Below, piece by piece: positions 3,383 through 62,482 of a stretch of 64,000 nt of DNA (position 1 is the stretch's first letter; each line of letters starts with the position of its first letter). Where the stretch lies: positions 953-64,952 of the forward strand of contig JBNLBG010000006.1 of the NCBI GenBank assembly GCA_050303195.1, in the 5' to 3' direction. The position numbers were made by a program, and so were the translations under genes. This stretch comes from Allomuricauda sp. (GTDB lineage Bacteria; Bacteroidota; Bacteroidia; Flavobacteriales; Flavobacteriaceae). The notes beneath the pieces were generated by a model that did no database searches, was not told the DNA's origin, and saw only the letters and a program-made list of their open reading frames with translations.

Positions 3383-3396
3383 TTGACGATTGTCAT
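3383..3396. promoter_or_regulatory. FNR/CRP-type box TTGACGATTGTCAT upstream of the hemG-like gene
   Basis: TTGA-N6-TCA core. Centre 3389.5 lies 29.5 nt from the -7-like TACATTTA (3419-3426), which is 37 nt before the ATG at 3464. Confidence 0.55.
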
Positions 3397-3463: not shown

Positions 3464-3985
3464 ATGAAAATTTTAATTGTTTATGCCACCGGTGAGGGAC
3501 AGACCCGGAAAATAGCCCGTTTTATGGAAGAGGTCCTTCAAGCTGAGAACCACAGCGTGGTAATTGCCGATGCCACCGAAGAGCCGCCATCACCGGAAAA
3601 TTTTGATGCGGTGCTGGTCGGTAGTTCCATTCATATTCAGAAGTATCACTCCTCCATTAAAGATTATGTCATGCAAAATGTGGATGAACTCAATAAAAAA
3701 CCGTCTGCCTTCTTTTCTGTTTCCATGGCCATAGCATCAGATATTGAGGAAGAACATAAAGAAGTGGAGAAAATAGCGCAGCGCTTTTTGGACCAAACGG
3801 GATGGAAGCCCAAGGAAATCAATCATATCGCCGGAGCGCTCAAGTATACCCAATACGACTATTTTAAAAGGCTTATTATGCGTATGATCGCCAAGAAAGA
3901 AGGGGGCTCCACAGATACTTCAAAAGATCACGAATATACAGATTGGGATGCGGTCCGGTCTTTTGTGCTGGATTTTGCCAAATAA
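3464..3985 (+). CDS. hemG: flavodoxin-domain protein, HemG-like (menaquinone-dependent protoporphyrinogen oxidase type)
   Basis: 173 aa. MKILIVYATGEGQTRKIA flavodoxin N-terminus. IAGALKYTQYDYFKRLIMRMIAKKEGGSTDTSKDHEYTDWDAV parallels the long-loop region of E. coli HemG as I recall it. Confidence 0.6.
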   Translation: MKILIVYATGEGQTRKIARFMEEVLQAENHSVVIADATEEPPSPENFDAVLVGSSIHIQKYHSSIKDYVMQNVDELNKKPSAFFSVSMAIASDIEEEHKEVEKIAQRFLDQTGWKPKEINHIAGALKYTQYDYFKRLIMRMIAKKEGGSTDTSKDHEYTDWDAVRSFVLDFAK

Positions 3986-6986: not shown

Positions 6987-7967
6987 CTAATCCTTATTCT
7001 CCTTACTTGCCGCTTTTTCTTGTTTTCTAAAATACCTCCGGGTCAAAAAATTATGTTTTAGGGCTTCCATATTTTCATTAAAACGTGCCGTTCCTTCCTC
7101 TATGTTTTGCATGGTTCGTTCCAATTGGTTTACCAGAACAGTATCTGTCGCCAAGTAGTTTATGGTTCCTTTTCCTTTGGAAATCGTTGTGGAAAGACTA
7201 TCGAGCGTATGGGAAATTGACACCATTTTTTTGCTCGAAGCTTCCAAGTTTTCCAAAACACTTTTCATCTGCTGACCAGAAATAGAGTCGTTTAGCAGTA
7301 CATCGGCCACACTGTTTTCAAAATTAATGTCCGTTATGATGCCATTGAGCTTTTCAAGTGTGACATTTGCTTCCATGCTCATCTTTTTAAGATTGACAGA
7401 AGTTTGCAAAAGGTTATTAGACATTACCGTATCATTGAGCAATCTTCCCAAGGTGCCCTTGTTGTGTTTTAATTTCTCGGTTATTTCCAACAGGTCGGCT
7501 GTTAAAAGTGCAGCATTCTCATTAGTGACGTTCAAGGTGCTCAACATATCTTCCGCTCCTATCTTGCTGTAGGAAACAATTTGGTCTCCTGATGCAATGG
7601 GTGCGCCTGCTCCTTGCCCAGGTACAATGTTTACGATCATACTACCTACCAAACCATCTGAGCCGATACTGGCTATGGCATTCTTTCGGATATGTTGCAG
7701 CATTTTCTCTTGAATGACCATGGTAACCACAATGGTGGTGTCGTTGAACATTTCAATGGTGTTTACTGTACCAATATCAATACCGGAATACCGAACATTA
7801 TTGCCTTTCTGGAGACCATTCACATTTTTAAAAACCGCATTTATGGTAAAGGTGTTTCCAAACAGATTTTGTCTATTTCCTATAAAATAGGCCGCAAGAA
7901 CCAGCAAAATAGTCCCCAGTGTAACAAAAACCCCTAGTTTTATTTTTTCTGTTGTTGTTTTATCCAT
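6987..7967 (-). CDS. MlaD/MCE family protein (substrate-binding component of the Mla-like ABC system)
   Basis: I chose the ATG at 7967 (MDKTTTEKIKLGVFV... with a TM anchor), 4 nt after the upstream stop. The longer track ORF reaching 8054 would overlap the ATPase by 83 nt. MCE-domain-like GNNVRYSGIDIGTV. Confidence 0.8.
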   Translation of the reverse strand: MDKTTTEKIKLGVFVTLGTILLVLAAYFIGNRQNLFGNTFTINAVFKNVNGLQKGNNVRYSGIDIGTVNTIEMFNDTTIVVTMVIQEKMLQHIRKNAIASIGSDGLVGSMIVNIVPGQGAGAPIASGDQIVSYSKIGAEDMLSTLNVTNENAALLTADLLEITEKLKHNKGTLGRLLNDTVMSNNLLQTSVNLKKMSMEANVTLEKLNGIITDINFENSVADVLLNDSISGQQMKSVLENLEASSKKMVSISHTLDSLSTTISKGKGTINYLATDTVLVNQLERTMQNIEEGTARFNENMEALKHNFLTRRYFRKQEKAASKENKD

Positions 7968-9591: not shown

Positions 9592-9605
9592 ATGATCGAA
9601 ATCAT
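9592..9605. promoter_or_regulatory. FNR-type box ATGATCGAAATCAT serving the minus-strand mlaE operon
   Basis: TGAT-N4-ATCA. Centre 9598.5 lies 29.5 nt from a perfect -7 element TATTTTTG read on the minus strand (9569-9562), 28 nt before the ATG at 9533. Confidence 0.6.
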
Positions 9606-9609
9606 ACTA

Positions 9610-9623
9610 CTGATCAATATCAT
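9610..9623. promoter_or_regulatory. FNR-type box CTGATCAATATCAT serving the plus-strand 128-aa ORF
   Basis: TGAT-N4-ATCA. Centre 9616.5 lies 29.5 nt from TAACTTTA (9646-9653), 23 nt before the ATG at 9677. Confidence 0.6.
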
Positions 9624-48073: not shown

Positions 48074-48838
48074 CTATCCGGCCAAATAGAAATTGTGCTC
48101 CAAGATTTCCCTTTTCAAGTAGTCTACATCAACAATGCCTATTCGCTTGCCTTTTGTATTGATAAGGTTTTCTCTTTTAAGTGCGGAAAACGTCCTGATG
48201 ACCTGTTCTTCGGTTGTTCCGGCATAATCGGCATAATCCCTTCGACTCAGGGGTACATCAAGAAAGCCATTGGATTGCCCAAATTTTCGGTTGATGTACA
48301 ATAAAGTATCAATGACCCGCTCCCTAACGGTCATTTGGGAGAGTGACTTTACCTTTGCTTCGCTTTTGTTGAGTTCGTTGGCATAAAAAAGCATTAGATC
48401 ATAGGCAAATGACGCGTCGCTCTTCAGCACTTCTTGGAGCAGGTCCTTTGAAAAGTAGCAAAGGGTTGAATCTTCAAGGGCGATTGCCCCAATGGGGTAG
48501 AATTCTTCGGTGCCAAAACCACGATGGCCAATGATTTCCCCTGCTTTGGCAAAGCGAACAATTTGTTCCCTTCCGTTGATACCAGTTCTAAAAACTTTCA
48601 CCTTGCCTTTTAGGATAAAGAACAATCCGTTTACCGGGGCCCCTTCAATAATGAACTGTTGCCCTTTTTTACACCGGATATCATTTTTACGTTCCATAAA
48701 CTTCGCAACAACGGGGGAGCCAATGTTTTTTTTCAACAAACAATATTCATTATTGCAACGGCTGCACGAGGTGTCTGACATGGATGGTTTTCCATGTCTC
48801 TCCTTGATTTTGGGTCCGTATGCCTCGTAAAATTGCAT
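48074..48838 (-). CDS. Crp/Fnr family transcriptional regulator with an FNR-type cysteine pattern
   Basis: N-terminal C-x2-C-x4-C (CSRCNNEYC) plus a Cys in ALEDSTLCYF, the position equivalent to E. coli FNR Cys122 (ALETSMVCEI). cNMP-like beta-roll. The C-terminal HTH contains EEQVIR. Alternative start at 48781. Confidence 0.75.
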   Translation of the reverse strand: MQFYEAYGPKIKERHGKPSMSDTSCSRCNNEYCLLKKNIGSPVVAKFMERKNDIRCKKGQQFIIEGAPVNGLFFILKGKVKVFRTGINGREQIVRFAKAGEIIGHRGFGTEEFYPIGAIALEDSTLCYFSKDLLQEVLKSDASFAYDLMLFYANELNKSEAKVKSLSQMTVRERVIDTLLYINRKFGQSNGFLDVPLSRRDYADYAGTTEEQVIRTFSALKRENLINTKGKRIGIVDVDYLKREILEHNFYLAG

Positions 48839-48848
48839 CAGGGTCTAA

Positions 48849-50267
48849 TTATTTTGACTTAACATAAACAGGCTTGGGTTGTCCGGCTTTTCCAATTTTC
48901 TCTTCTCTTTCATCGGCAGTTGAGAATTTAATGGCCAATGACATAAATGCCGTTACCACTACAAATGCACCTATAATAAAGTATCCGCTAGAAACGGCTG
49001 AAGATGCAGCTGAGGCTTGGGCCGCTTTTACAGCCTCTTCACCCAATGAAGCATTGACCTTTATTGCGGCTGTTTCTGCCAGGGCCGATTTCGATTTCAA
49101 CAAAAGGGCGGCCAAAAAAGCCCCTACATTACCCCCAGCTCCCACAATACCTGATATGGACCCAATTGCTTTCTTATTGATAAAGGGAACCACAGAGAAC
49201 GTTGCTCCTTCCGCCATTTGAACGGTTAAACTGAATGCCACCAAAAATAGTATTCCAAAAGCTATACTGGTGGTCACAGAAAAAATGGAGAGCATGATGC
49301 CCTCAACGCCCAAGATAAGTGCCAAGAAAAGTACACGCCCTCTCAGTCCTTTCATTTTTCCAAACCGATCACCAAAGAAACCGCCCAAGGTTCTGGCAAA
49401 AATATTCATCAAGGCAAATGACAGAACCAAGTTACCAGCGGTTGTTCTATTAAGGTGAAATGTGTTTTGGAGATAATCGTCCATAGTTCCATATACCGTA
49501 AGTTCCATTCCAAAGCAAGCGGCATAGACTATGAACAAAATCCACACCCTATAATCTGTAAGGGTTTTCAAGAATGGAATCTCATCTTTCTTTTTTATGG
49601 GCAATTCTCCCTTTTCCTTTAACTCGGAAAAATTTCCTTCGGGCGTATCCTGAGTGAAGAAATAATAAACAATCCCCATGACAAAACAGATGATACCTGC
49701 TATGACCATGGAATAACGCCAAGCTATTTCATCTGCCACACCAAAGCTCACCACAGCGGCAGCGATCAAGGGCATTCCTAAGCGGTTGGCCCCTCCACCG
49801 AGGTTTCCCCAACCTGCGGAAGTAGCATTGGCGGTTCCCACAATATTTGGAGCAAACATAATTGAGGTATGAAATTGGGTAATTACAAAAGAGGCTCCAA
49901 TAAATCCGATAAAAAGGCGACATACTAAAAATTGCAAAGGTGTTTGCACAAAACCAATAAGAATAACAGGTAGTGCCCCAATGGTCAACAAAAAGGTATA
50001 ACATAATCTTGGACCGTATTTATCACATAGTTTACCGATAAGAAGTCGTGCAAAAACGGTTCCTGTTACCGCTAAAATGACCGAATTCCATTTTTGGTTC
50101 GGTGTCAATCCCAAATCCCTTACTACATCCGGCATAAACGGAACAATACCGAACCAAGCAAAGAAGCAGGTGAAAAATGCTATTGAGGTAATCCAAAAAG
50201 TTCTGGTTGGAATACTTTTAAAGTTTAATAGATTTAAAGCAGTGGCTTTTTGAGATGTAACGGACAT
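48849..50267 (-). CDS. narK: NarK/NasA family MFS nitrate/nitrite transporter
   Basis: I chose the ATG at 50267; the track start at 50291 is TTG. 12 TM. GWGNLGGG and GIVGAGGNVG are the two nitrate-signature (NS) motifs. Confidence 0.85.
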   Translation of the reverse strand: MSVTSQKATALNLLNFKSIPTRTFWITSIAFFTCFFAWFGIVPFMPDVVRDLGLTPNQKWNSVILAVTGTVFARLLIGKLCDKYGPRLCYTFLLTIGALPVILIGFVQTPLQFLVCRLFIGFIGASFVITQFHTSIMFAPNIVGTANATSAGWGNLGGGANRLGMPLIAAAVVSFGVADEIAWRYSMVIAGIICFVMGIVYYFFTQDTPEGNFSELKEKGELPIKKKDEIPFLKTLTDYRVWILFIVYAACFGMELTVYGTMDDYLQNTFHLNRTTAGNLVLSFALMNIFARTLGGFFGDRFGKMKGLRGRVLFLALILGVEGIMLSIFSVTTSIAFGILFLVAFSLTVQMAEGATFSVVPFINKKAIGSISGIVGAGGNVGAFLAALLLKSKSALAETAAIKVNASLGEEAVKAAQASAASSAVSSGYFIIGAFVVVTAFMSLAIKFSTADEREEKIGKAGQPKPVYVKSK

Positions 50268-50296
50268 GATACTTAGCTTTGTTTGAAACAAAAATA

Positions 50297-50321
50297 AGTA
50301 TTAATACGTATTTTTACGTAC
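50297..50321. promoter_or_regulatory. AGTATTA arm plus tandem TACGTA cores upstream of narK
   Basis: AGTATTAaTACGTAtttttACGTAC. Cores at 50305-50310 and 50315-50320, 10 bp apart. The proximal core lies 8 nt from a perfect -7 element TATTTTTG read on the minus strand (50296-50289), 21 nt before the ATG at 50267. Confidence 0.55.
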
Positions 50322-51271: not shown

Positions 51272-51277
51272 TACGTA
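51272..51277. promoter_or_regulatory. TACGTA core overlapping a minus-strand -7 element for cobA
   Basis: The minus strand reads TACGTATTTTTG. TATTTTTG (51273-51266) is a perfect TAnnTTTG, 46 nt before the cobA ATG (51219). Confidence 0.45.
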
Positions 51278-51294
51278 ATTATTTTTAAATAATC

Positions 51295-51326
51295 AGTATT
51301 AAATTACGTAATAATACTTAGTTTTG
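51295..51326 (+). promoter_or_regulatory. nirB promoter block: AGTATTAaatTACGTAaTAATACT followed by the -7 element TAGTTTTG
   Basis: Core at 51305-51310, 8-nt spacer, -7 element at 51319-51326, ATG at 51351. 20 of 22 nt are identical to the narK promoter block. Confidence 0.55.
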
Positions 51327-54897: not shown

Positions 54898-56733
54898 ATG
54901 AAAAAGAGCAATCAGCAGCAAGCATTGGATGTCTCAACATTTTTGAGAATCCGTAAATGGTATCTATTAGCCCTTTCTGCCATTGCCCTTACGGTTATCA
55001 TTGCCCAAATTCTGATACAACAGCACCTTAATTCCCAATTGAGCGATTCCCGTGTGATTAATGTGGCGGGTCGTCAACGCGCCTATAGCCAAAAATTGGT
55101 CAAGGAGGCTTTGCTGCTCAACCAAGAAAATCTTGGAGACAGCGAACAACAAGAACTCTTAGATAAGCTGAAAAACACACTTTATGTCTGGAAGACATCC
55201 CATGAAGGGCTCCAAAAGGGAAATGACAGCATTGGACTTCCCAAGGAGGAAAATGAAGCCATACTTCAACATTTTAAGGAGCTTTCCATACACCATAATG
55301 CCATGGTCAATGCCGTGGAGTCCATGCTATCGGAACAAGACTCATTGAAAAATCAAGCTCAATTGAACATTTTACTGGCCAACGAAGCCCCTTTTCTTGA
55401 GAAAATGGATGCCATTGTAAACGAGTATGATACCATCAGCAAGGAAAAACTACAGAATTTGAAGGTGAAGGAATATTTGCTGTTGGTCTTTTCACTATTG
55501 ATTTTAATCTTGGAAGTGCTCTTTATTTTTAGACCGCTTTCCATACAAATCAGGGAAACCATTCGGGATTTGGTGAAAAGTAAATTACGGTCAGATCAAG
55601 ATGCCAAGGAAATCAAGAAAATATTTGAAGAGAAGGAAAAATCCCTTCAAGAGTTGAAGGAGTTAAACTTTGTGATTGACAATGCTGCACTTTTTGCCAG
55701 TGCCCGTAGCGATGGTTCCGTTGTTTTTATCAGTAAAAAGTTCATGACGCTCCTGGAAGAAACCAAAATCCCACCAAATGTGCACTTATCTGAGATTTTG
55801 ACAGTGGATGAGGGGCAACGACAATACCTACATGAGGTTTTGACCAAGCCTCGCAAAAGCATCCGAACCGAGGAAATTGAGATAAATACCAAAGCTGGGA
55901 AAAAACTTTGGTTAGACATGTCCATTATCCCCATGCACCCCTCGAGTTTAAAACAAAGCGTTTTATTGTTGTGTTCGGACATCACCGAACGCATGAACAA
56001 TCAGAAAAAAGTGGAACAGCTCACACTTCAGAATTACGAAGACCGGATGCGTCAAAAACAATTGCAGGCCAGCCTTATTGTTGAAGGTCAGGAAGAAGAA
56101 CGAAAGCGAATTGCCAAGGACATTCACGATGGTATTGGACAAATGCTTACGGCATTGCGGTTCAACATTGAATCCATCAACCTAAAAAACAAGGAAAAGA
56201 CCAAGGAAAAAATTGATTACCTAAAAAGTCTCACCTCAGACCTCATCAAAGGGGTACGCACCGCAACTTTTAACCTAACCCCACCTGAACTGGGTGATCA
56301 CGGAATCTTTCCCGCTTTGCAAAAAATGACCTCTGAATTGAGCAAATTGACCGGAAAAAACATTTTATTTGAAAATAAGGCCGAGGAGAACATCCGTTTT
56401 GACTCGCTGGCCGAGACCAATATTTATAGAGTTACCCAAGAAGCGGTGAACAATGCCATAAAATACGCTGATGCCAATTATATTTTGGTGACCATTAACC
56501 ATACCGGGGATCTGTTGAGTGTGGTCATTGATGATGACGGAAAGGGGTTTGACCCATCCATTCTGGAAAAACCACCTAAAAATAGCAGCGATGGTGGAAT
56601 GGGTGTGTTTTTTATGAGGGAACGCATCAGTTATATTAATGGTAGGCTTTTCATCAATTCAACTCTAGGAGAAGGAACCCGGGTCACCATAAATTACCAT
56701 CTTGGTGAAACCCTGCAAGAAGTAGAACAATAA
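54898..56733 (+). CDS. NarX/NarQ-like sensor histidine kinase (PilJ/P-box-type periplasmic domain, PAS, HisKA_3, HATPase)
   Basis: 611 aa. [15 protein letters not shown] is a P-box-like motif after TM1. A second TM follows, then a PAS-like region, [22 protein letters not shown] (HisKA_3) and an N/G-box HATPase. Confidence 0.85.
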
Positions 56734-56744
56734 ATAAAACGGCT

Positions 56745-57122
56745 ATGAAAATTAGAATAAAAGGAAATTCGATTCGATATAGATTGACCAAGACTGAGGT
56801 GGAAACCTTTTCCAAAACAGGGTCGTACCAGGAAACTACCGATTTTGGAAACAATGTGTTCACCTACGTACTAAAAGCAAAAAAAGGCATTGATACTTTG
56901 GAGGCGTCTTTTGAGGAAAATACGATAACACTATATCTTTCCGACAAGGAACAGTCTGATTGGGCAATATCGGACAGGGTTGGTTTCAATAACACGATGG
57001 ACTTACCCAATGGAAAGCAACTTTCACTGCTTCTGGAAAAAGACTTTGTATGTTTAGATGAGACCATCGAAGATCAATCGGACAATTATCCAAACCCAAG
57101 AACCGACACCAACGCTTGCTAA
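56745..57122 (+). CDS. hypothetical protein (125 aa)
   Basis: Follows the kinase gene by 11 nt. No recognisable motif. Acidic C-terminal half. Confidence 0.5.
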   Translation: MKIRIKGNSIRYRLTKTEVETFSKTGSYQETTDFGNNVFTYVLKAKKGIDTLEASFEENTITLYLSDKEQSDWAISDRVGFNNTMDLPNGKQLSLLLEKDFVCLDETIEDQSDNYPNPRTDTNAC

Positions 57123-57195
57123 TCTTCAAAAGTTTAATGGGTATCATCTAACCATCAAGAATCTCAAAAGGAAAAATTGATATTGGTAAATAGCA

Positions 57196-57627
57196 CTACA
57201 ATGGAAAAAATTCCTCAATATCCTGTTTTCCTTCGATCAAATCCAAAATGGTTGTGCTTTCAAGCACGTTGATAAACTTGGATTTATTGGAACCTACAAG
57301 TTTGTGAAGTACACAAGGATGGTTCATATCACAATCCTTAATGCCCATGACACATGAGTTGACGCGTTTCTCCCCATCAATGACCTTAACAATATCCATT
57401 AATGTTCGTTGTCGATCATTTTCACTTAAATAGAACCCTCCCCGCGGCCCTCTAATAGACGAAATAATACCATGTCGGGATAATTCTTGCAGTAATTTGG
57501 CCAAATAAGCTTCGGGAACATGCACTACCTCAAATATATCCCTGACCATGATTTTATGGTTCCTGTCGGAGTTCAATGCTAAATAGAGCACCCCTTTAAT
57601 GGCATATTTGGATGAATTGGAAAGCAT
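57196..57627 (-). CDS. Rrf2 family transcriptional regulator with a three-Cys cluster motif (NsrR/IscR-like)
   Basis: I chose the ATG at 57627 (MLSNSSKYAIKGVLYLA...). A winged HTH, then C-x6-C-x5-C (CVMGIKDCDMNHPC). Confidence 0.8.
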   Translation of the reverse strand: MLSNSSKYAIKGVLYLALNSDRNHKIMVRDIFEVVHVPEAYLAKLLQELSRHGIISSIRGPRGGFYLSENDRQRTLMDIVKVIDGEKRVNSCVMGIKDCDMNHPCVLHKLVGSNKSKFINVLESTTILDLIEGKQDIEEFFPL

Positions 57628-57673
57628 GATAGTTTTATCACAACAAAGATTAAAAGACATTTTTATCCTTTTT

Positions 57674-57687
57674 ATGATTTATATCAT
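57674..57687. promoter_or_regulatory. FNR-type box ATGATTTATATCAT upstream of the cytochrome c-fasciclin-nosZ operon
   Basis: TGAT-N4-ATCA. Centre 57680.5 lies 29.5 nt from a perfect -7 element TACTTTTG (57710-57717), 26 nt before the ATG at 57744. On the other side AATCTTTG (57651-57644, minus strand) sits at the same 29.5-nt distance towards the Rrf2 gene. Confidence 0.6.
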
Positions 57688-57743
57688 GTTATAGGTTTGG
57701 GCCGCTACATACTTTTGGGGCATAATTTTTAACCAATTATGTC

Positions 57744-58256
57744 ATGAAAACAACAATAAAAGGAATAGCCCTTCTCTTTGCCCTCATCATCATGGGGTGT
57801 GGAGGAAAGAAAGAGGAAAAAAAAGAGGAAGGCTTCAGCGTACAACGGAAAAAAGCCAAAACGGAACAGCCCGCAGAGACAAACACCTCCGATGAAGTGA
57901 AGGCTTCCGAGCGTGTTGATATGACCACTAAAGGGGTCGGTCCCGTCACGTCTGTTGAATTGGCACCGGAAATTGACCAAGCATTGGCGACCAACGGAAA
58001 AGAAGTCTATGACCAAATGTGCTTGGCCTGCCATAGAATTGACAAAAAATTCATAGGACCACCACCAAATGGGGTTTTGGAAAGAAGAACTCCGGAATGG
58101 GTCATGAACATGATCTTGAACCCCCAAGAAATGGTGCAACAAGATCCTTTGGCGAAAGACCTGCTCCAAGAGTTCAACGGATCACCTATGTCCAATCAAG
58201 GCTTGACCGAAGATCAAGCCCGAGCTATTCTTGAATATTTTAGAACCTTAAAATAA
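57744..58256 (+). CDS. c-type cytochrome lipoprotein (mono-haem)
   Basis: 170 aa. Lipobox IIMGCGG, haem motif CLACH, and a distal Met region PMSNQGL. Confidence 0.85.
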   Translation: MKTTIKGIALLFALIIMGCGGKKEEKKEEGFSVQRKKAKTEQPAETNTSDEVKASERVDMTTKGVGPVTSVELAPEIDQALATNGKEVYDQMCLACHRIDKKFIGPPPNGVLERRTPEWVMNMILNPQEMVQQDPLAKDLLQEFNGSPMSNQGLTEDQARAILEYFRTLK

Positions 58257-58262
58257 ATCCGT

Positions 58263-58844
58263 ATGACATCCACCATTAAACTCAGTATGATGGGGTTATT
58301 CTTACTGTTTGCACTAAACACGAGCTGTAAGAACGGACCCAAAAACGAACCCACTACTTCGGACCAAAATACATCCGAGACTACTATGGAATACAATAAA
58401 GGACAGGCCTTTATTGAAGATGATGAATCCACCCCTAATGTATTACAGATTGCCATTGGATCACCGGACCACAGCACTTTGGTCGCTGCCGTGCAGGCCG
58501 CTCAATTGGAAAATGTTTTGGTAAATGCTGGGCCGTTAATGGTTTTTGCGCCTACCAATGATGCCTTTGGTGCCCTGCCCGAAGGAACTGTGGAAGACTT
58601 ATTGAAACCTGAGAACAAGGATGCTCTCGCAAACATCCTCAAGTACCATGTAACTCCCGGCAACTATTCCAAGGAATTTTTGAAAAATTTTAAAAAGCTG
58701 GGACAGGCCAATGATCAAAGCGTGTCCGTTGAAGTCAAGGGCGATGATGTCTTTGTTGGAGGGGCCAAAATTATGGCCAGTGTACCAGCCGGGAACGGTA
58801 TTGTCCATGTGGTGGACAAAGTCATCCTACCCCCTACTCAATAA
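58263..58844 (+). CDS. fasciclin (FAS1) domain lipoprotein
   Basis: 193 aa. Lipobox LNTSCK. TLVAAVQAAQLENVL, VFAPTNDAFGALPEGTVEDLL, LKYHV and NGIVHVVDKVILP are FAS1 H1/H2/YH motifs. Confidence 0.85.
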   Translation: MTSTIKLSMMGLFLLFALNTSCKNGPKNEPTTSDQNTSETTMEYNKGQAFIEDDESTPNVLQIAIGSPDHSTLVAAVQAAQLENVLVNAGPLMVFAPTNDAFGALPEGTVEDLLKPENKDALANILKYHVTPGNYSKEFLKNFKKLGQANDQSVSVEVKGDDVFVGGAKIMASVPAGNGIVHVVDKVILPPTQ

Positions 58845-58875: not shown

Positions 58876-60828
58876 ATGAAAATCTATAATCATTTTATGA
58901 TGTCCATAGGAGCAGTGCTGATGCTGGTTTCCTGTGGTCAGCAAAATCAAAGCTCCAACGGGGCCCTGTCGTCCAGTGCCGCCGAAAAAGTGTATGTTGC
59001 CCCAGGCGAACAAGACGAATATTATGCCTTCCTATCCGGAGGATATAGCGGAAACCTCACGGTTTATGGTCTGCCTTCAGGAAGGATGTTTAAAGAGATT
59101 CCTGTATTCTCCCAATTCCCAACCTCCGGTTACGGTTATTCCGAAGAAACCAAGCCCATGTTGAACACTTCCCACGGATTTGTGCCATGGGACGATGCCC
59201 ACCACCCCGATATCTCCCAGACCAATGGAGAATTGGATGGACGGTGGATATTTATCAATGGTAACAACACACCAAGGATTGCCCGTATTGATTTGAGTAC
59301 TTTTGAAACTGAAGAAATCATCGAAGTGCCCAACAGTGCCGGTAACCACAGTTCCTCTTTCATTACAGAAAACACCGAATATGTAGTGGCGGGTACCCGA
59401 TTTTCCGTTCCTATTCCACAAAGGGACATGCCCATAAATGAATACAAGAGCAACTTTAAAGGATCCCTGTCCTTTATCAGTGTGGATCCAGAAAACGGGC
59501 ACATGGACTTGAAATTTCAATTGTTAATGCCCGGGTTCAACTATGATTTATCGCACCCAGGTAGGGATAAATCCCACGGATGGTTCTTCTTTACCACCTA
59601 TAACACTGAGGAAGCGCACACTTTACAAGAAGTGAATGCCTCACAAAACGACAAGGATTTTATCGCTGCGGTAAACTGGAAGAAAATTGAGGAGTATGTA
59701 AATAATGGTGGAGGCACCAAAATGCCCGCCAATTATGCACACAATGTGTATGATGAAGGCTCGCATACAGCAACCACCACTATGAAAAAAGAGGTGTTGA
59801 CCGTAGATCCTTTAAAGGTTCCCGGTGCTGTATATTTTTTACCAACGCCAAAATCACCACACGGTTGTGATGTGGACCCCACTGGGCAGTACATTATTGG
59901 AAATGGTAAACTTTCCGCCGACTTGACGGTACACTCTTTTGATAAGATGATAGCCGCCATTGAAGGTGAAAAATTTGATGGTGAAGCCTACGGTATTCCC
60001 ATTCTTAAATTCGAAGATGTATTGGCCGGACAGGTAAAAAGTGGAGGCCTTGGCCCATTACACACAGAGTTTGACGGTAAAGGCAATGCCTATACCACTT
60101 TCTTCATCTCTTCGGAAGTAGTAAAATGGAAATTGGGCACCTGGGAGGTGCTTGACAGAAAACCTACCTATTATTCCGTGGGACACTTAATGATTCCTGG
60201 AGGTAACTCAAGAAAGCCTTTCGGAAAATATGTGGTGGCCATGAACAAGATCACCAAGGATCGTTATTTACCCACAGGACCCGAGATGGAACACTCTGCA
60301 CAGATCTATGACATCTCCGGAGATAAAATGGAACTGATCTATGATTTCCCAACACATGGTGAACCACACTACGCTGCAGGTTGCCCTGCCGAACTGCTCG
60401 CTCCAAAATCACAGAAAATCTATCGGTTGGATGAGAACAAACACCCTTATGCCGTAACCTCACCCACCGGTTCCAAAGTGGTTCGCGAAGGAAACGAGGT
60501 GCATGTGTATATGTCCACTATCAGAAGCCACTTTACCCCAGATAATATTGAGGGCATTAAAGTGGGCGATAAGGTATATTTCCACATCACCAACCATGAG
60601 CAAGATTTTGATGTACCTCATGGCTTTGCAATGATAGGACAGAACACCTCCGAACTTTTGATCATGCCCGGACAGACCAAGACCTCGGTTTGGGAACCTA
60701 AGCAAGTGGGTGTATGGCCGTTCTACTGTACTGATTTCTGCTCTGCTCTGCACCAAGAAATGCAAGGATATGTCAGGGTTTCCCCTGCCAATTCCAATGT
60801 AGAACTGAAATGGTCACTTGGTGAGTAA
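58876..60828 (+). CDS. nosZ: Sec-dependent (clade II) nitrous-oxide reductase
   Basis: 650 aa. Sec/lipoprotein-type signal (LMLVSCGQ) with no twin-arginine. A His-rich beta-propeller and the CuA motif CTDFCSALHQEM. Confidence 0.95.
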   Translation: MKIYNHFMMSIGAVLMLVSCGQQNQSSNGALSSSAAEKVYVAPGEQDEYYAFLSGGYSGNLTVYGLPSGRMFKEIPVFSQFPTSGYGYSEETKPMLNTSHGFVPWDDAHHPDISQTNGELDGRWIFINGNNTPRIARIDLSTFETEEIIEVPNSAGNHSSSFITENTEYVVAGTRFSVPIPQRDMPINEYKSNFKGSLSFISVDPENGHMDLKFQLLMPGFNYDLSHPGRDKSHGWFFFTTYNTEEAHTLQEVNASQNDKDFIAAVNWKKIEEYVNNGGGTKMPANYAHNVYDEGSHTATTTMKKEVLTVDPLKVPGAVYFLPTPKSPHGCDVDPTGQYIIGNGKLSADLTVHSFDKMIAAIEGEKFDGEAYGIPILKFEDVLAGQVKSGGLGPLHTEFDGKGNAYTTFFISSEVVKWKLGTWEVLDRKPTYYSVGHLMIPGGNSRKPFGKYVVAMNKITKDRYLPTGPEMEHSAQIYDISGDKMELIYDFPTHGEPHYAAGCPAELLAPKSQKIYRLDENKHPYAVTSPTGSKVVREGNEVHVYMSTIRSHFTPDNIEGIKVGDKVYFHITNHEQDFDVPHGFAMIGQNTSELLIMPGQTKTSVWEPKQVGVWPFYCTDFCSALHQEMQGYVRVSPANSNVELKWSLGE

Positions 60829-62014: not shown

Positions 62015-62482
62015 ATGAGCATGATTGCAGATTTGGAACCCGTAAAATGTAACGGCCTTTTGGCAGACAATTATGTGGGACACTTGGCCTACATTGCCGA
62101 CAATGAACCGCATGTGATACCCTCAACCTATTTTTTTGATGAGGAGCAAAAGTGTATCTTGTGTTTCGCTTCCGACGGGCACCGGATAAACGCTCTTAGA
62201 AAATGTAATAAAATTTCTTTACAAGTCGATAGTATTCAGTCGTTTCGCCATTGGCAATCGGTACAAGTGCATGGTACTTTTCAAGAGCTTACTGGAGATT
62301 GTGCCAAGCAAGGTCTAAAACGTTTTGCGGACGGCGTACAGCAAACCATAGACAATAAAAATGCCGAACGCCCCCATTTTTTAAGTCATTTTTCCGGTAG
62401 GTTGCAAGAAACGGAAATGCCAGTGGTGTATCGTATTGCAGTGACCAAAATAACAGGAAAATCCGTAGAGGATTTTACGTAA
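62015..62482 (+). CDS. pyridoxamine 5'-phosphate oxidase-like (split-barrel flavin-binding) family protein
   Basis: 155 aa. LLADNYVGHLAYIADNEPHVIPSTYFFDE...ILCFASDGHRINALRK fits the PNPOx/general stress protein 26-like split barrel. No signal peptide. Confidence 0.6.
   Translation: MSMIADLEPVKCNGLLADNYVGHLAYIADNEPHVIPSTYFFDEEQKCILCFASDGHRINALRKCNKISLQVDSIQSFRHWQSVQVHGTFQELTGDCAKQGLKRFADGVQQTIDNKNAERPHFLSHFSGRLQETEMPVVYRIAVTKITGKSVEDFT

Follow-up and report, generated by a model that had tools for sequence, protein, structure and literature searches.

The window analysed here, a 64,000-nucleotide (nt) stretch of DNA from the marine flavobacterium Allomuricauda sp. (Flavobacteriaceae; contig JBNLBG010000006.1, positions 953 to 64,952), carries a nitrous oxide (N2O) reductase (nos) operon and, divergent from it, a gene encoding a regulator of the Rrf2 family. 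Between the two lie two adjacent palindromes, Box 1 and Box 2, and the comparative data make it probable that Box 2 is the site of a Crp/Fnr-family activator of the nos operon that belongs to a low-oxygen regulon, and that Box 1 is the operator of the Rrf2 protein. By every comparative criterion Box 2 is a real and functional element of the Crp/Fnr class II type. The features on the nos side of the intergenic region are:

57673-57688, no strand: Box 2, TATGATTTATATCATG, a 16 base-pair (bp) dyad with core TGA-N6-TCA at 57675-57686 and centre at 57680.5; proposed Crp/Fnr-family activator site
57689-57692, plus strand: T-tract (TTAT in the window, TTTT in the consensus) at about -33 to -30, replacing the canonical -33 TTTG
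57710-57717, plus strand: nos -7 box TACTTTTG, a perfect TAnnTTTG, 26 nt before the cytochrome c ATG at 57744
57722, plus strand: predicted transcription start of the nos operon, placed from the position of TAnnTTTG in PMC9723704
57744-58256, plus strand: cytochrome c, first gene of the nos operon (Pfam, NCBIfam)
58263-58844, plus strand: fasciclin-domain protein, second gene of the nos operon (Pfam, NCBIfam)
58876-60828, plus strand: NosZ of clade II, Sec-dependent, third gene of the nos operon (Pfam, NCBIfam)

The palindrome in front of the nos operon

We compared the region with 80 nosZ loci that were recovered by scanning reference genomes with NosZ: the closest belong to Flagellimonas/Muricauda (96% identity) and the others to many genera of the Flavobacteriaceae and to several Cytophagales (two orders). 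The order cytochrome c-fasciclin-nosZ is kept across the 80 loci, and a conservation profile was made from 64 non-redundant sequences. The proteins encoded in the window were assigned to domains and families with Pfam and NCBIfam. These assignments agree with the identities given in an earlier note on this DNA (Rrf2, cytochrome c, fasciclin, clade II NosZ and a Crp/Fnr protein at 48074-48838), and all coordinates in that note proved correct on re-reading the sequence.

The earlier note had placed an FNR-type box, ATGATTTATATCAT (57674-57687, centre 57680.5), at class II distance in front of the operon. Counted within the window the palindrome is not exceptional: TGAT-N4-ATCA is found 3 times against 1.92 expected, a number reached in 33 of 100 shuffles; ATGAT-N4-ATCAT and TTGAT-N4-ATCAA, with mismatches allowed, were likewise not significant within the window alone; and a repeat finder run on 57620-57750 reported nothing, because the arms of Box 2 are only 5 nt long. 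The significance of the box comes from its conservation and not from its in-window frequency. Measured from start to start, a TGA-N6-TCA element upstream of the first nos-operon gene precedes a TAnnTTTG-type box by exactly 35 nt in 75 of the 80 nosZ loci (one weak); when these upstream regions were shuffled, such a pair appeared in 0.19% of cases. The class II distance thus turned out to be fixed. The flanks that were not used to anchor the search are conserved as well (T57673 in 59/64, A57674 in 63/64, T57687 in 64/64 and T57689 in 62/64), and the 21-nt spacer between Box 2 and the -7 box holds no information content. The consensus reads TATGAY-N4-RTCAT, followed by the T-tract; the core TGA-N6-TCA of this dyad is invariant in the 64 non-redundant loci, in the manner of Crp/Fnr-family sites. 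An Rfam search of 56500-58500 matched no RNA families.

In Flavobacterium psychrophilum, mapped transcription starts put the sigma-A element TAnnTTTG at -12 to -5 (PMC9723704). The nos -7 box has exactly this Bacteroidetes form, and at the same offset the element is perfect in 70 loci and a 5/6 match in 5. With TAnnTTTG at -12 to -5, G57717 becomes -5, the nos start is predicted at 57722, and the centre of Box 2, which lies 29.5 nt upstream of the first base of the -7 box, falls at -41.5, the class II position relative to this predicted start. Bacteroidetes sigma-A promoters have a second element, TTTG at -33, about 19 nt upstream of the -7 box. The window reads TGTT/TTAT at this site, and within spacings of 17-21 nt the canonical TTTG was found in 1 of 70 nos promoters and in none of the 24 other phased promoters that are described below. 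The sequence found there instead is rich in T: counted from the start of the box, each position from +14 to +17 is a T in 62-68 of 70 nos promoters, except for the weaker +16 (48/70), and the same positions hold a T in 17-22 of the 24 other phased promoters. A missing -33 TTTG together with a T-tract is as expected for promoters that depend on an activator lying over the upstream element.

Box 1 and the divergent rrf2 gene

The features on the other side of Box 2 are:

57652-57671, no strand: Box 1, AAAAGACATTTTTATCCTTT, a 20-bp dyad with core GAY-N6-RTC at 57656-57667 and centre at 57661.5; proposed Rrf2 operator
57644-57651, minus strand: rrf2 -7-like box AATCTTTG (7/8 match), 16 nt before the Rrf2 ATG at 57627; predicted start at about 57639
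57196-57627, minus strand: Rrf2-family regulator of 143 amino acids (PF02082; superfamily match only in NCBIfam)

Box 1, which the earlier note had overlooked, has the general form TTCGGAYA-N4-TRTCCGAA. Its centre is 19 bp upstream of that of Box 2 and, counted from the two predicted starts, falls at -60.5 for nos and at -22.5 for rrf2. The rrf2 gene is divergent from cytochrome c-fasciclin-nosZ in about 54 of the 80 loci. A mechanical list of open reading frames lets it start at 57660; its homologs in 58 related loci begin at the methionine of MLSNSSKY, so that the listed frame is too long and 57627 is the true start.

All 58 loci carrying Rrf2 contain Box 1, as an exact match in 56 and with a single mismatch in 2. 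In 54 of the 58 its centre is 19-20 bp from that of Box 2, and in two the distance is 28 bp. The six loci that have no Box 1 (L019, L021, L054, L065, L068 and L077) are all without Rrf2. The element also follows the gene into another arrangement: in Cytophagales with a co-directional rrf2-RIC-cytochrome c-fasciclin-nosZ order, the full palindrome (L049, L053) or a variant of it (L058) lies just upstream of rrf2; in L049 and L053 it covers the -33 region of the rrf2 promoter and has a Box 2 on one side and the -7 box on the other. Since Box 1 tracks the Rrf2 gene, it is likely to be the operator of the divergent Rrf2 protein. The fallback offered in the earlier note, that the palindrome named there might itself be the Rrf2 operator, loses its ground to this separate element. 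In all arrangements examined, the predicted starts place Box 1 within the rrf2 promoter, between its -7 box and its -33 region, so that it overlaps the core promoter as an operator would. In L028 a second Box 1 is found between Box 2 and the nos -7 box (3715-3728), which supports repression. An extra Box 1 and Box 2 with a perfect minus-strand -7 box were also seen downstream of rrf2 in L004 (3262-3296), with no obvious gene attached.

The best solved relative of the window Rrf2 is NsrR of S. coelicolor (5n07). The protein has the winged-helix domain of the Rrf2 family and three C-terminal cluster cysteines, which align with C93, C99 and C105 of this NsrR, and the ligand Asp8 is not conserved. 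On the NsrR equivalog model NF008240 it scores 52.9 bits against a cut-off of 182; the IscR and RirA models score above the NsrR model, and still under their own cut-offs. NsrR operators conform to an 11-1-11 inverted repeat of the AAGATGCATTT type, which Box 1 does not resemble. The window rrf2 gene is monocistronic; rrf2-RIC(-globin) operons occur in L015, L049 and L053, and the one in L015, rrf2-RIC-truncated globin with the Rrf2 gene first, would fit a nitric oxide (NO)-related role of Rrf2. The set rrf2-RIC(-truncated globin) is a classic NO-response gene set. Two Rrf2 subtypes can be told apart by their N-termini (MLSNSSKYA... and MFSKACEYG...); they are 33-40% identical, both have Box 1, and the MFSKACEYG subtype is the one that heads the rrf2-RIC(-truncated globin) operons (L015 2067-3705, L049 2675-3873 and L053 2551-3750).

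The earlier note had further suggested that Box 2 serves both directions, being equally far from a -7 element on either side. The mirror-image distance of 35 nt is indeed present towards rrf2 in the Flagellimonas group, with an imperfect -7 box, but it does not hold in other genera, in which the spacing is 36, 41 or 46 and more nt. The AATCTTTG-type box is kept in the Flagellimonas group and in L037; elsewhere a perfect TAnnTTTG stands at a variable distance, which is 36 nt in 8 loci, 41 nt in 6, 45-46 nt in 5 and larger in others. Mirror-image class II phasing towards rrf2 is therefore ruled out as a conserved feature. On the rrf2 side the order Box 2, Box 1 and -7 box matches that of the Cytophagales operons. 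Since the rrf2 promoter has no -33 TTTG either, the factor that binds Box 2 may also activate rrf2, but would then do so without the rigid phasing of the nos side.

Further phased promoters and a candidate regulator

The claim that identical phasing recurs at unrelated promoters was borne out by 21-24 non-nos sites, including those of hemN, usp and RIC. For non-nos Box 2 cores, 21 perfect -7 boxes are located at exactly 35 nt, where about 0.06 are expected per distance, and the window has 10 phased Box 2 sites against 1.8 expected. The genes preceded by such a site encode: HemN (10 loci; TIGR00538, above cut-off), universal stress proteins (4 loci), RIC/ScdA (2 loci), a FixI-like ATPase fragment, thioredoxin-like proteins, ModE-like regulators, a PPOX/Nim-like protein and DUF2249-type proteins. 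Within the window the following were found:

3384-3395, plus strand: Box 2-like site TGACGATTGTCA (TTGACGATTGTCAT), 35 nt before TACATTTA and upstream of HemG (3464-3985)
9593-9604 and 9611-9622, no strand: paired Box 2 sites that share an intergenic region at a distance of 18 bp; each is exactly 35 nt from its own -7 box, and the two -7 boxes are on opposite strands

HemG, the menaquinone-dependent protoporphyrinogen dehydrogenase, matches the equivalog model NF008316 above its cut-off. Of the two -7 boxes of the pair, TATTTTTG faces an mlaE-mlaF-mlaD-like operon (MlaE, ABC and MlaD domains) and TAACTTTA an open reading frame of 128 amino acids without a family match; the arrangement looks like two divergent class II promoters. 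Several functionally related promoters (hemN, usp, RIC, HemG and others) hence share the phased box, as is characteristic of a regulon. Both hemN and hemG are classic targets of O2 limitation, and the combination of their O2-independent haem synthesis with nos and stress proteins is, as judged from gene content, the signature of an FNR/Anr-type low-oxygen regulon. The recurrence of the same phased box before hemN, hemG, usp and RIC suggests that the regulator is a global low-oxygen (or low-oxygen/NO) switch that includes nosZ. In F. psychrophilum, oxygen limitation induces the cbb3 oxidase and haem synthesis, and no regulator was named (PMC9723704).

Some further observations concern these genes. 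HemG performs an O2-independent step of haem synthesis, and its site parallels the hemN sites in related loci. Beyond nosZ the nos operon continues to the window end with genes for a membrane protein, NosL, a PPOX-like protein and NosD; the PPOX/Nim-like (pyridoxamine-phosphate-oxidase-class) gene (62015-62482) lies between nosL and nosD inside the cluster, and its Winogradskyella homolog (L015 753-1208) stands alone with a phased Box 2 of its own. A small cysteine-rich membrane protein (123-131 amino acids, no family match) has a phased Box 2 in three genera (L062 300-335, L070 10926 and L080 10891), and in L062 its gene also has Box 1 at the nos-like spacing of 19-20 bp, making a second full two-box promoter. 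A spacing peak at 81 nt was discarded as a promoter signal: it arises from TGAY-N4-RTCA with TAnnTTTG 81 nt downstream at about 7800-7900 in nine loci (L014, L023, L027, L033, L035, L040, L044, L079 and L080) and represents conserved nosL coding sequence instead. Motif-distance peaks among homologous loci can thus be coding artefacts.

The candidate trans-acting factor in the window is:

48074-48838, minus strand: Crp/Fnr-family protein (PF00027 sensor and PF13545 helix-turn-helix), directly after narK in the nitrate-assimilation operon

This is the sole Crp/Fnr protein encoded in the window. It combines a cNMP-binding-like sensor domain and a C-terminal Crp-type helix-turn-helix with four cysteines of the FNR kind: C25-x2-C28-x4-C33 and C127, the latter aligning with C122 of FNR. 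Its homologs are 70-80% identical across the Flavobacteriaceae, and in 15 genera C25, C28 and C33 are nearly invariant, and C127 and the helix EEQVIR invariant. The recognition helix reads E-x-x-I-R where FNR has E-x-x-S-R; with Glu and Arg kept and Ile for Ser212, it would fit a TGA core preceded by A or C and not by T. The base before TGA is A in 69 of 70 nos promoters, and in the other phased promoters it is A or C in 23 of 24 and T once. In Seonamhaeicola the genes downstream of the homolog encode a globin, a ferredoxin reductase and a multihaem cytochrome.

Pairs of the hexamer TACGTA occur in both nitrate-assimilation promoters of the window (50305-50310, 50315-50320, 51272-51277 and 51305-51310), that is, in front of narK-fnr-nrtABCD and of nirBD, of which the latter has its -7 box TAGTTTTG at 51319-51326. 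In Seonamhaeicola TTACGTA stands just before the -7 box of the fnr-like gene (L083, about 4975). TACGTA is perhaps a candidate site for a nitrate/nitrite regulator partnered with the NarX-like kinase at 54898-56733.

Three Cytophagales loci (L051, L054 and L056) carry a Crp/Fnr gene directly beside Box 2-preceded hemN, RIC or nos genes, with neither Rrf2 nor Box 1, and it is from these adjoining genes that we infer a Crp/Fnr protein as the probable ligand of Box 2. The linked proteins are short, have no cysteine cluster, come closest to the NO sensor DNR of P. aeruginosa (3dkw) and have the helix E-T-V-I-R/K. Among the matches listed for this short DNR-like regulator (at least 120) all are Cytophagales-like, and no Crp/Fnr genes were found within 5 kb of nosZ in the Flavobacteriaceae loci or in the Box 2-rich islands L015, L019 and L077.

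Mechanism, alternatives and known systems

We propose that a dimeric Crp/Fnr-family activator would bind Box 2, centred at -41.5 of the cytochrome c-fasciclin-nosZ promoter, and would there occupy the site of the -33 contact (class II activation); RNA polymerase, offered a perfect -7 box and no canonical -33 TTTG, is expected to need such an activator. The regulator would be a global low-oxygen or low-oxygen/NO switch with nosZ in its regulon, and O2 the signal that controls nos. The most likely binder in this genome would be the FNR-like protein at 48074-48838, in which the cysteines for the [4Fe-4S] cluster of FNR are kept and the E-x-x-I-R helix suits an ATGA half-site, and we lean slightly towards this assignment. 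An iron-sulphur Rrf2 on Box 1, inside its own core promoter (-22.5), would exert autorepression, which is the straightforward reading of the rrf2 side. On the nos side the same protein would abut the activator site (-60.5) and might act as an anti-activator by crowding, an effect that we favour and regard as uncertain. Loss of the Rrf2 cluster, most plausibly through NO, would release both the rrf2 and the nos promoter.

Several observations weigh against parts of this proposal. Box 2 departs from the canonical FNR box TTGAT-N4-ATCAA, with which it agrees at 8 of 10 positions (ATGA in place of TTGA), and the candidate protein scores 73.3 bits on the Fnr model NF008365 (cut-off 228) and far below the cut-offs of the FixK and FnrL models too. 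In Polaribacter and Zobellia, too, its homolog lies within nitrate-assimilation clusters. No Box 2 was found in the nitrate-assimilation promoters of the window, Polaribacter and Zobellia or at the Seonamhaeicola gene, so that neither autoregulation nor control of nitrate assimilation via Box 2 is supported, and the fnr-like gene has no genomic link to the Box 2 regulon in the loci examined; physical linkage to Box 2-preceded genes was seen only for the Crp/Fnr genes of the Cytophagales, whose products are short, Cys-less and DNR-like. Box 1 occurs without Rrf2 within 5 kb in 11 loci (in two more the Rrf2 gene lies elsewhere in the locus), and the co-occurrence of Box 1 and Rrf2 (Fisher p = 0.0013) is calculated in a way that ignores phylogeny. 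Finally, -60.5 is an unusual position for a simple repressor, which leaves the sign of the Rrf2 action on nos uncertain.

Box 2 could also be a Crp/Fnr site whose reader is a DNR/NnrR-like, NO-sensing paralog with its gene in another part of the genome, or a site shared by O2 and NO sensors (Anr/Dnr-like), in which case the protein embedded in the nitrate-assimilation operon would not be the binder and nosZ would be mainly NO-controlled. The DNR-like character of the Cytophagales genes beside Box 2, the presence of RIC and DUF2249-type genes in the regulon and the missing genomic link of the Cys-cluster protein all suit this idea. However, the window and the 5 kb around nosZ in every Flavobacteriaceae locus are free of a short paralog, the hemN and hemG targets are classically tied to O2 limitation, and the Cys-cluster protein is extremely conserved, with an invariant helix predicted to read the TGA core, and we hold the idea to be rather unlikely. 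A single box may serve two sensors, Anr and Dnr being an example, and such sharing between an O2 sensor and an NO sensor has been considered before (Rodionov et al. 2005, PMC1274295).

A repressor on Box 2, or a factor from a different family, could occlude the -33 region, and the fixed spacing would then reflect mere promoter overlap; the position of the site would agree with this. Such occlusion does not need single-nucleotide phasing across about 95 promoters; the systematic absence of the -33 TTTG is expected if an activator substitutes for it, and both the 5-6-5 geometry of TGA-N6-TCA and the linked Crp/Fnr genes suit the Crp/Fnr family, which makes a repressor improbable. Adjacency would speak for the Rrf2 protein as the reader of Box 2, with Box 1 left to another factor: Rrf2 proteins bind AT-rich dyads, those of the RirA type recognise TGA-N9-TCA, and the window Rrf2 is weakly similar to the RirA and IscR models. 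Yet Box 2 is present at the nos promoters of the six loci named above that have no Rrf2, and more than 20 unrelated promoters have it with no Box 1 beside it; it is Box 1 and not Box 2 that is lost together with Rrf2 and that follows rrf2 into co-directional operons; and the rigid class II phasing with the missing -33 element points to a Crp/Fnr-type activator, so that we regard an Rrf2 operator at this place as very improbable. A chance AT-rich dyad without function, finally, would agree with the in-window frequency at chance level and the silent repeat finder. It is already refuted by the 75 of 80 phased loci against a null of 0.19%, the conserved flanks and the non-conserved spacer, and is practically negligible.

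With the Crp/Fnr activator on Box 2 and Rrf2 on Box 1 as the preferred reading, a wider picture can be drawn tentatively. The Bacteroidota might have an FNR lineage of their own (N-terminal cysteine cluster, E-x-V-I-R, ATGA-N6-TCAT) that runs a phylum-typical low-oxygen regulon (hemN, hemG, usp and nos) by class II activation on -7/-33 promoters and that is transcribed in the Flavobacteriaceae from narK-fnr. At nos it might be paired with a new Rrf2 subfamily (autorepressor and anti-activator, with a 20-bp operator abutting the activator site), which would fill a role that clade I NosR systems handle differently. If the Flavobacteriaceae fnr gene is indeed transcribed from the nitrate-assimilation operon, N2O respiration would be conditional on both nitrate and low O2.

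Bacteria with clade II nosZ include many Bacteroidota and are considered to be important sinks of N2O. The two-box motif offers a sequence-only prediction of which Flavobacteriaceae and Cytophagales would induce nosZ at low oxygen and/or NO and of the genes co-regulated with it; with the exact bases defined, the regulation of this environmentally important sink becomes directly testable. The phased promoters also form a large and clean candidate class II set for studying contacts between an activator and RNA polymerase with the unusual Bacteroidetes sigma-A. The regulation of clade II nosZ is poorly known outside the Proteobacteria, and a metagenome study found clade II nos scaffolds to be enriched in Rrf2 genes, with sites not identified (PMC6264515). 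A study of CRP/FNR meta-regulons found no denitrification control in a Flavobacteriales genome (PMC8510549), and the boxes of the FNR-like DNR, NnrR and HcpR regulators and the NsrR sites were described in a survey that did not cover Flavobacteria (Rodionov et al. 2005, PMC1274295). Our literature search, limited to the searchable library, revealed no described cis-element for Flavobacteriaceae nos genes and neither Box 1 nor Box 2.

The nos promoter is closely similar to the Proteobacterial class II promoters of FNR, Anr, Dnr and FnrP-NNR: Box 2 is a 16-bp TGA-N6-TCA dyad at 29.5 nt from the -10/-7 element (-41.5), the upstream element is weak or absent and the regulon contains nos, hemN and stress proteins. 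The Proteobacterial FNR box TTGAT-N4-ATCAA is found at -41.5 of nosZ, nirS/K, norB and hemN, and class II FNR and CRP promoters have the same 29.5 nt from box centre to downstream element. The present promoters differ in their half-site, (A/C)TGA and not TTGA, and in the Bacteroidetes sigma-A -7 element TAnnTTTG; the candidate regulator differs in having Ile for Ser212 and a score below the cut-off of the Fnr model, and the nosZ gene is of the Sec-dependent clade II and without NosR. An FNR-type site and a candidate operator of an iron-sulphur Rrf2 in one promoter recall the dual control by FNR and NsrR (Neisseria aniA/norB; E. coli hcp, ytfE and hmp; B. subtilis nasD/hmp with NsrR), and so do the three NsrR-aligned cysteines of the window Rrf2 and the related Rrf2 genes at the head of rrf2-RIC-globin operons. 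In contrast to those systems, Box 1 is not an 11-1-11 repeat and the Flavobacteriaceae operator would lie upstream of the activator site (-60.5) and not over the core nos promoter.

In B. subtilis narK and fnr likewise form an operon, and Fnr has its cysteine cluster at the C-terminus. The fnr-like gene of the window (48074-48838) lies immediately downstream of narK (48849-50291) and is probably co-transcribed with it, but the operon runs on into assimilatory nitrate transporter genes and the cysteine cluster is N-terminal, as in E. coli FNR. Clade II nos genes without NosR and under the control of Crp/Fnr-family regulators, as proposed here, have their counterpart in the Nss systems of the Campylobacteria (NssA/B/C of Wolinella succinogenes; Nitrosophilus labii), which belong to another phylum, have other regulator lineages and another box, and are described without an Rrf2 partner. 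For Nitrosophilus labii, regulation of the clade II nosZ by Crp/Fnr proteins has been proposed (PMC11539149). Set beside these systems, the proposed mechanism is conventional, with a variant half-site, an unusual sigma context and, as a new companion, the proposed Rrf2 operator.

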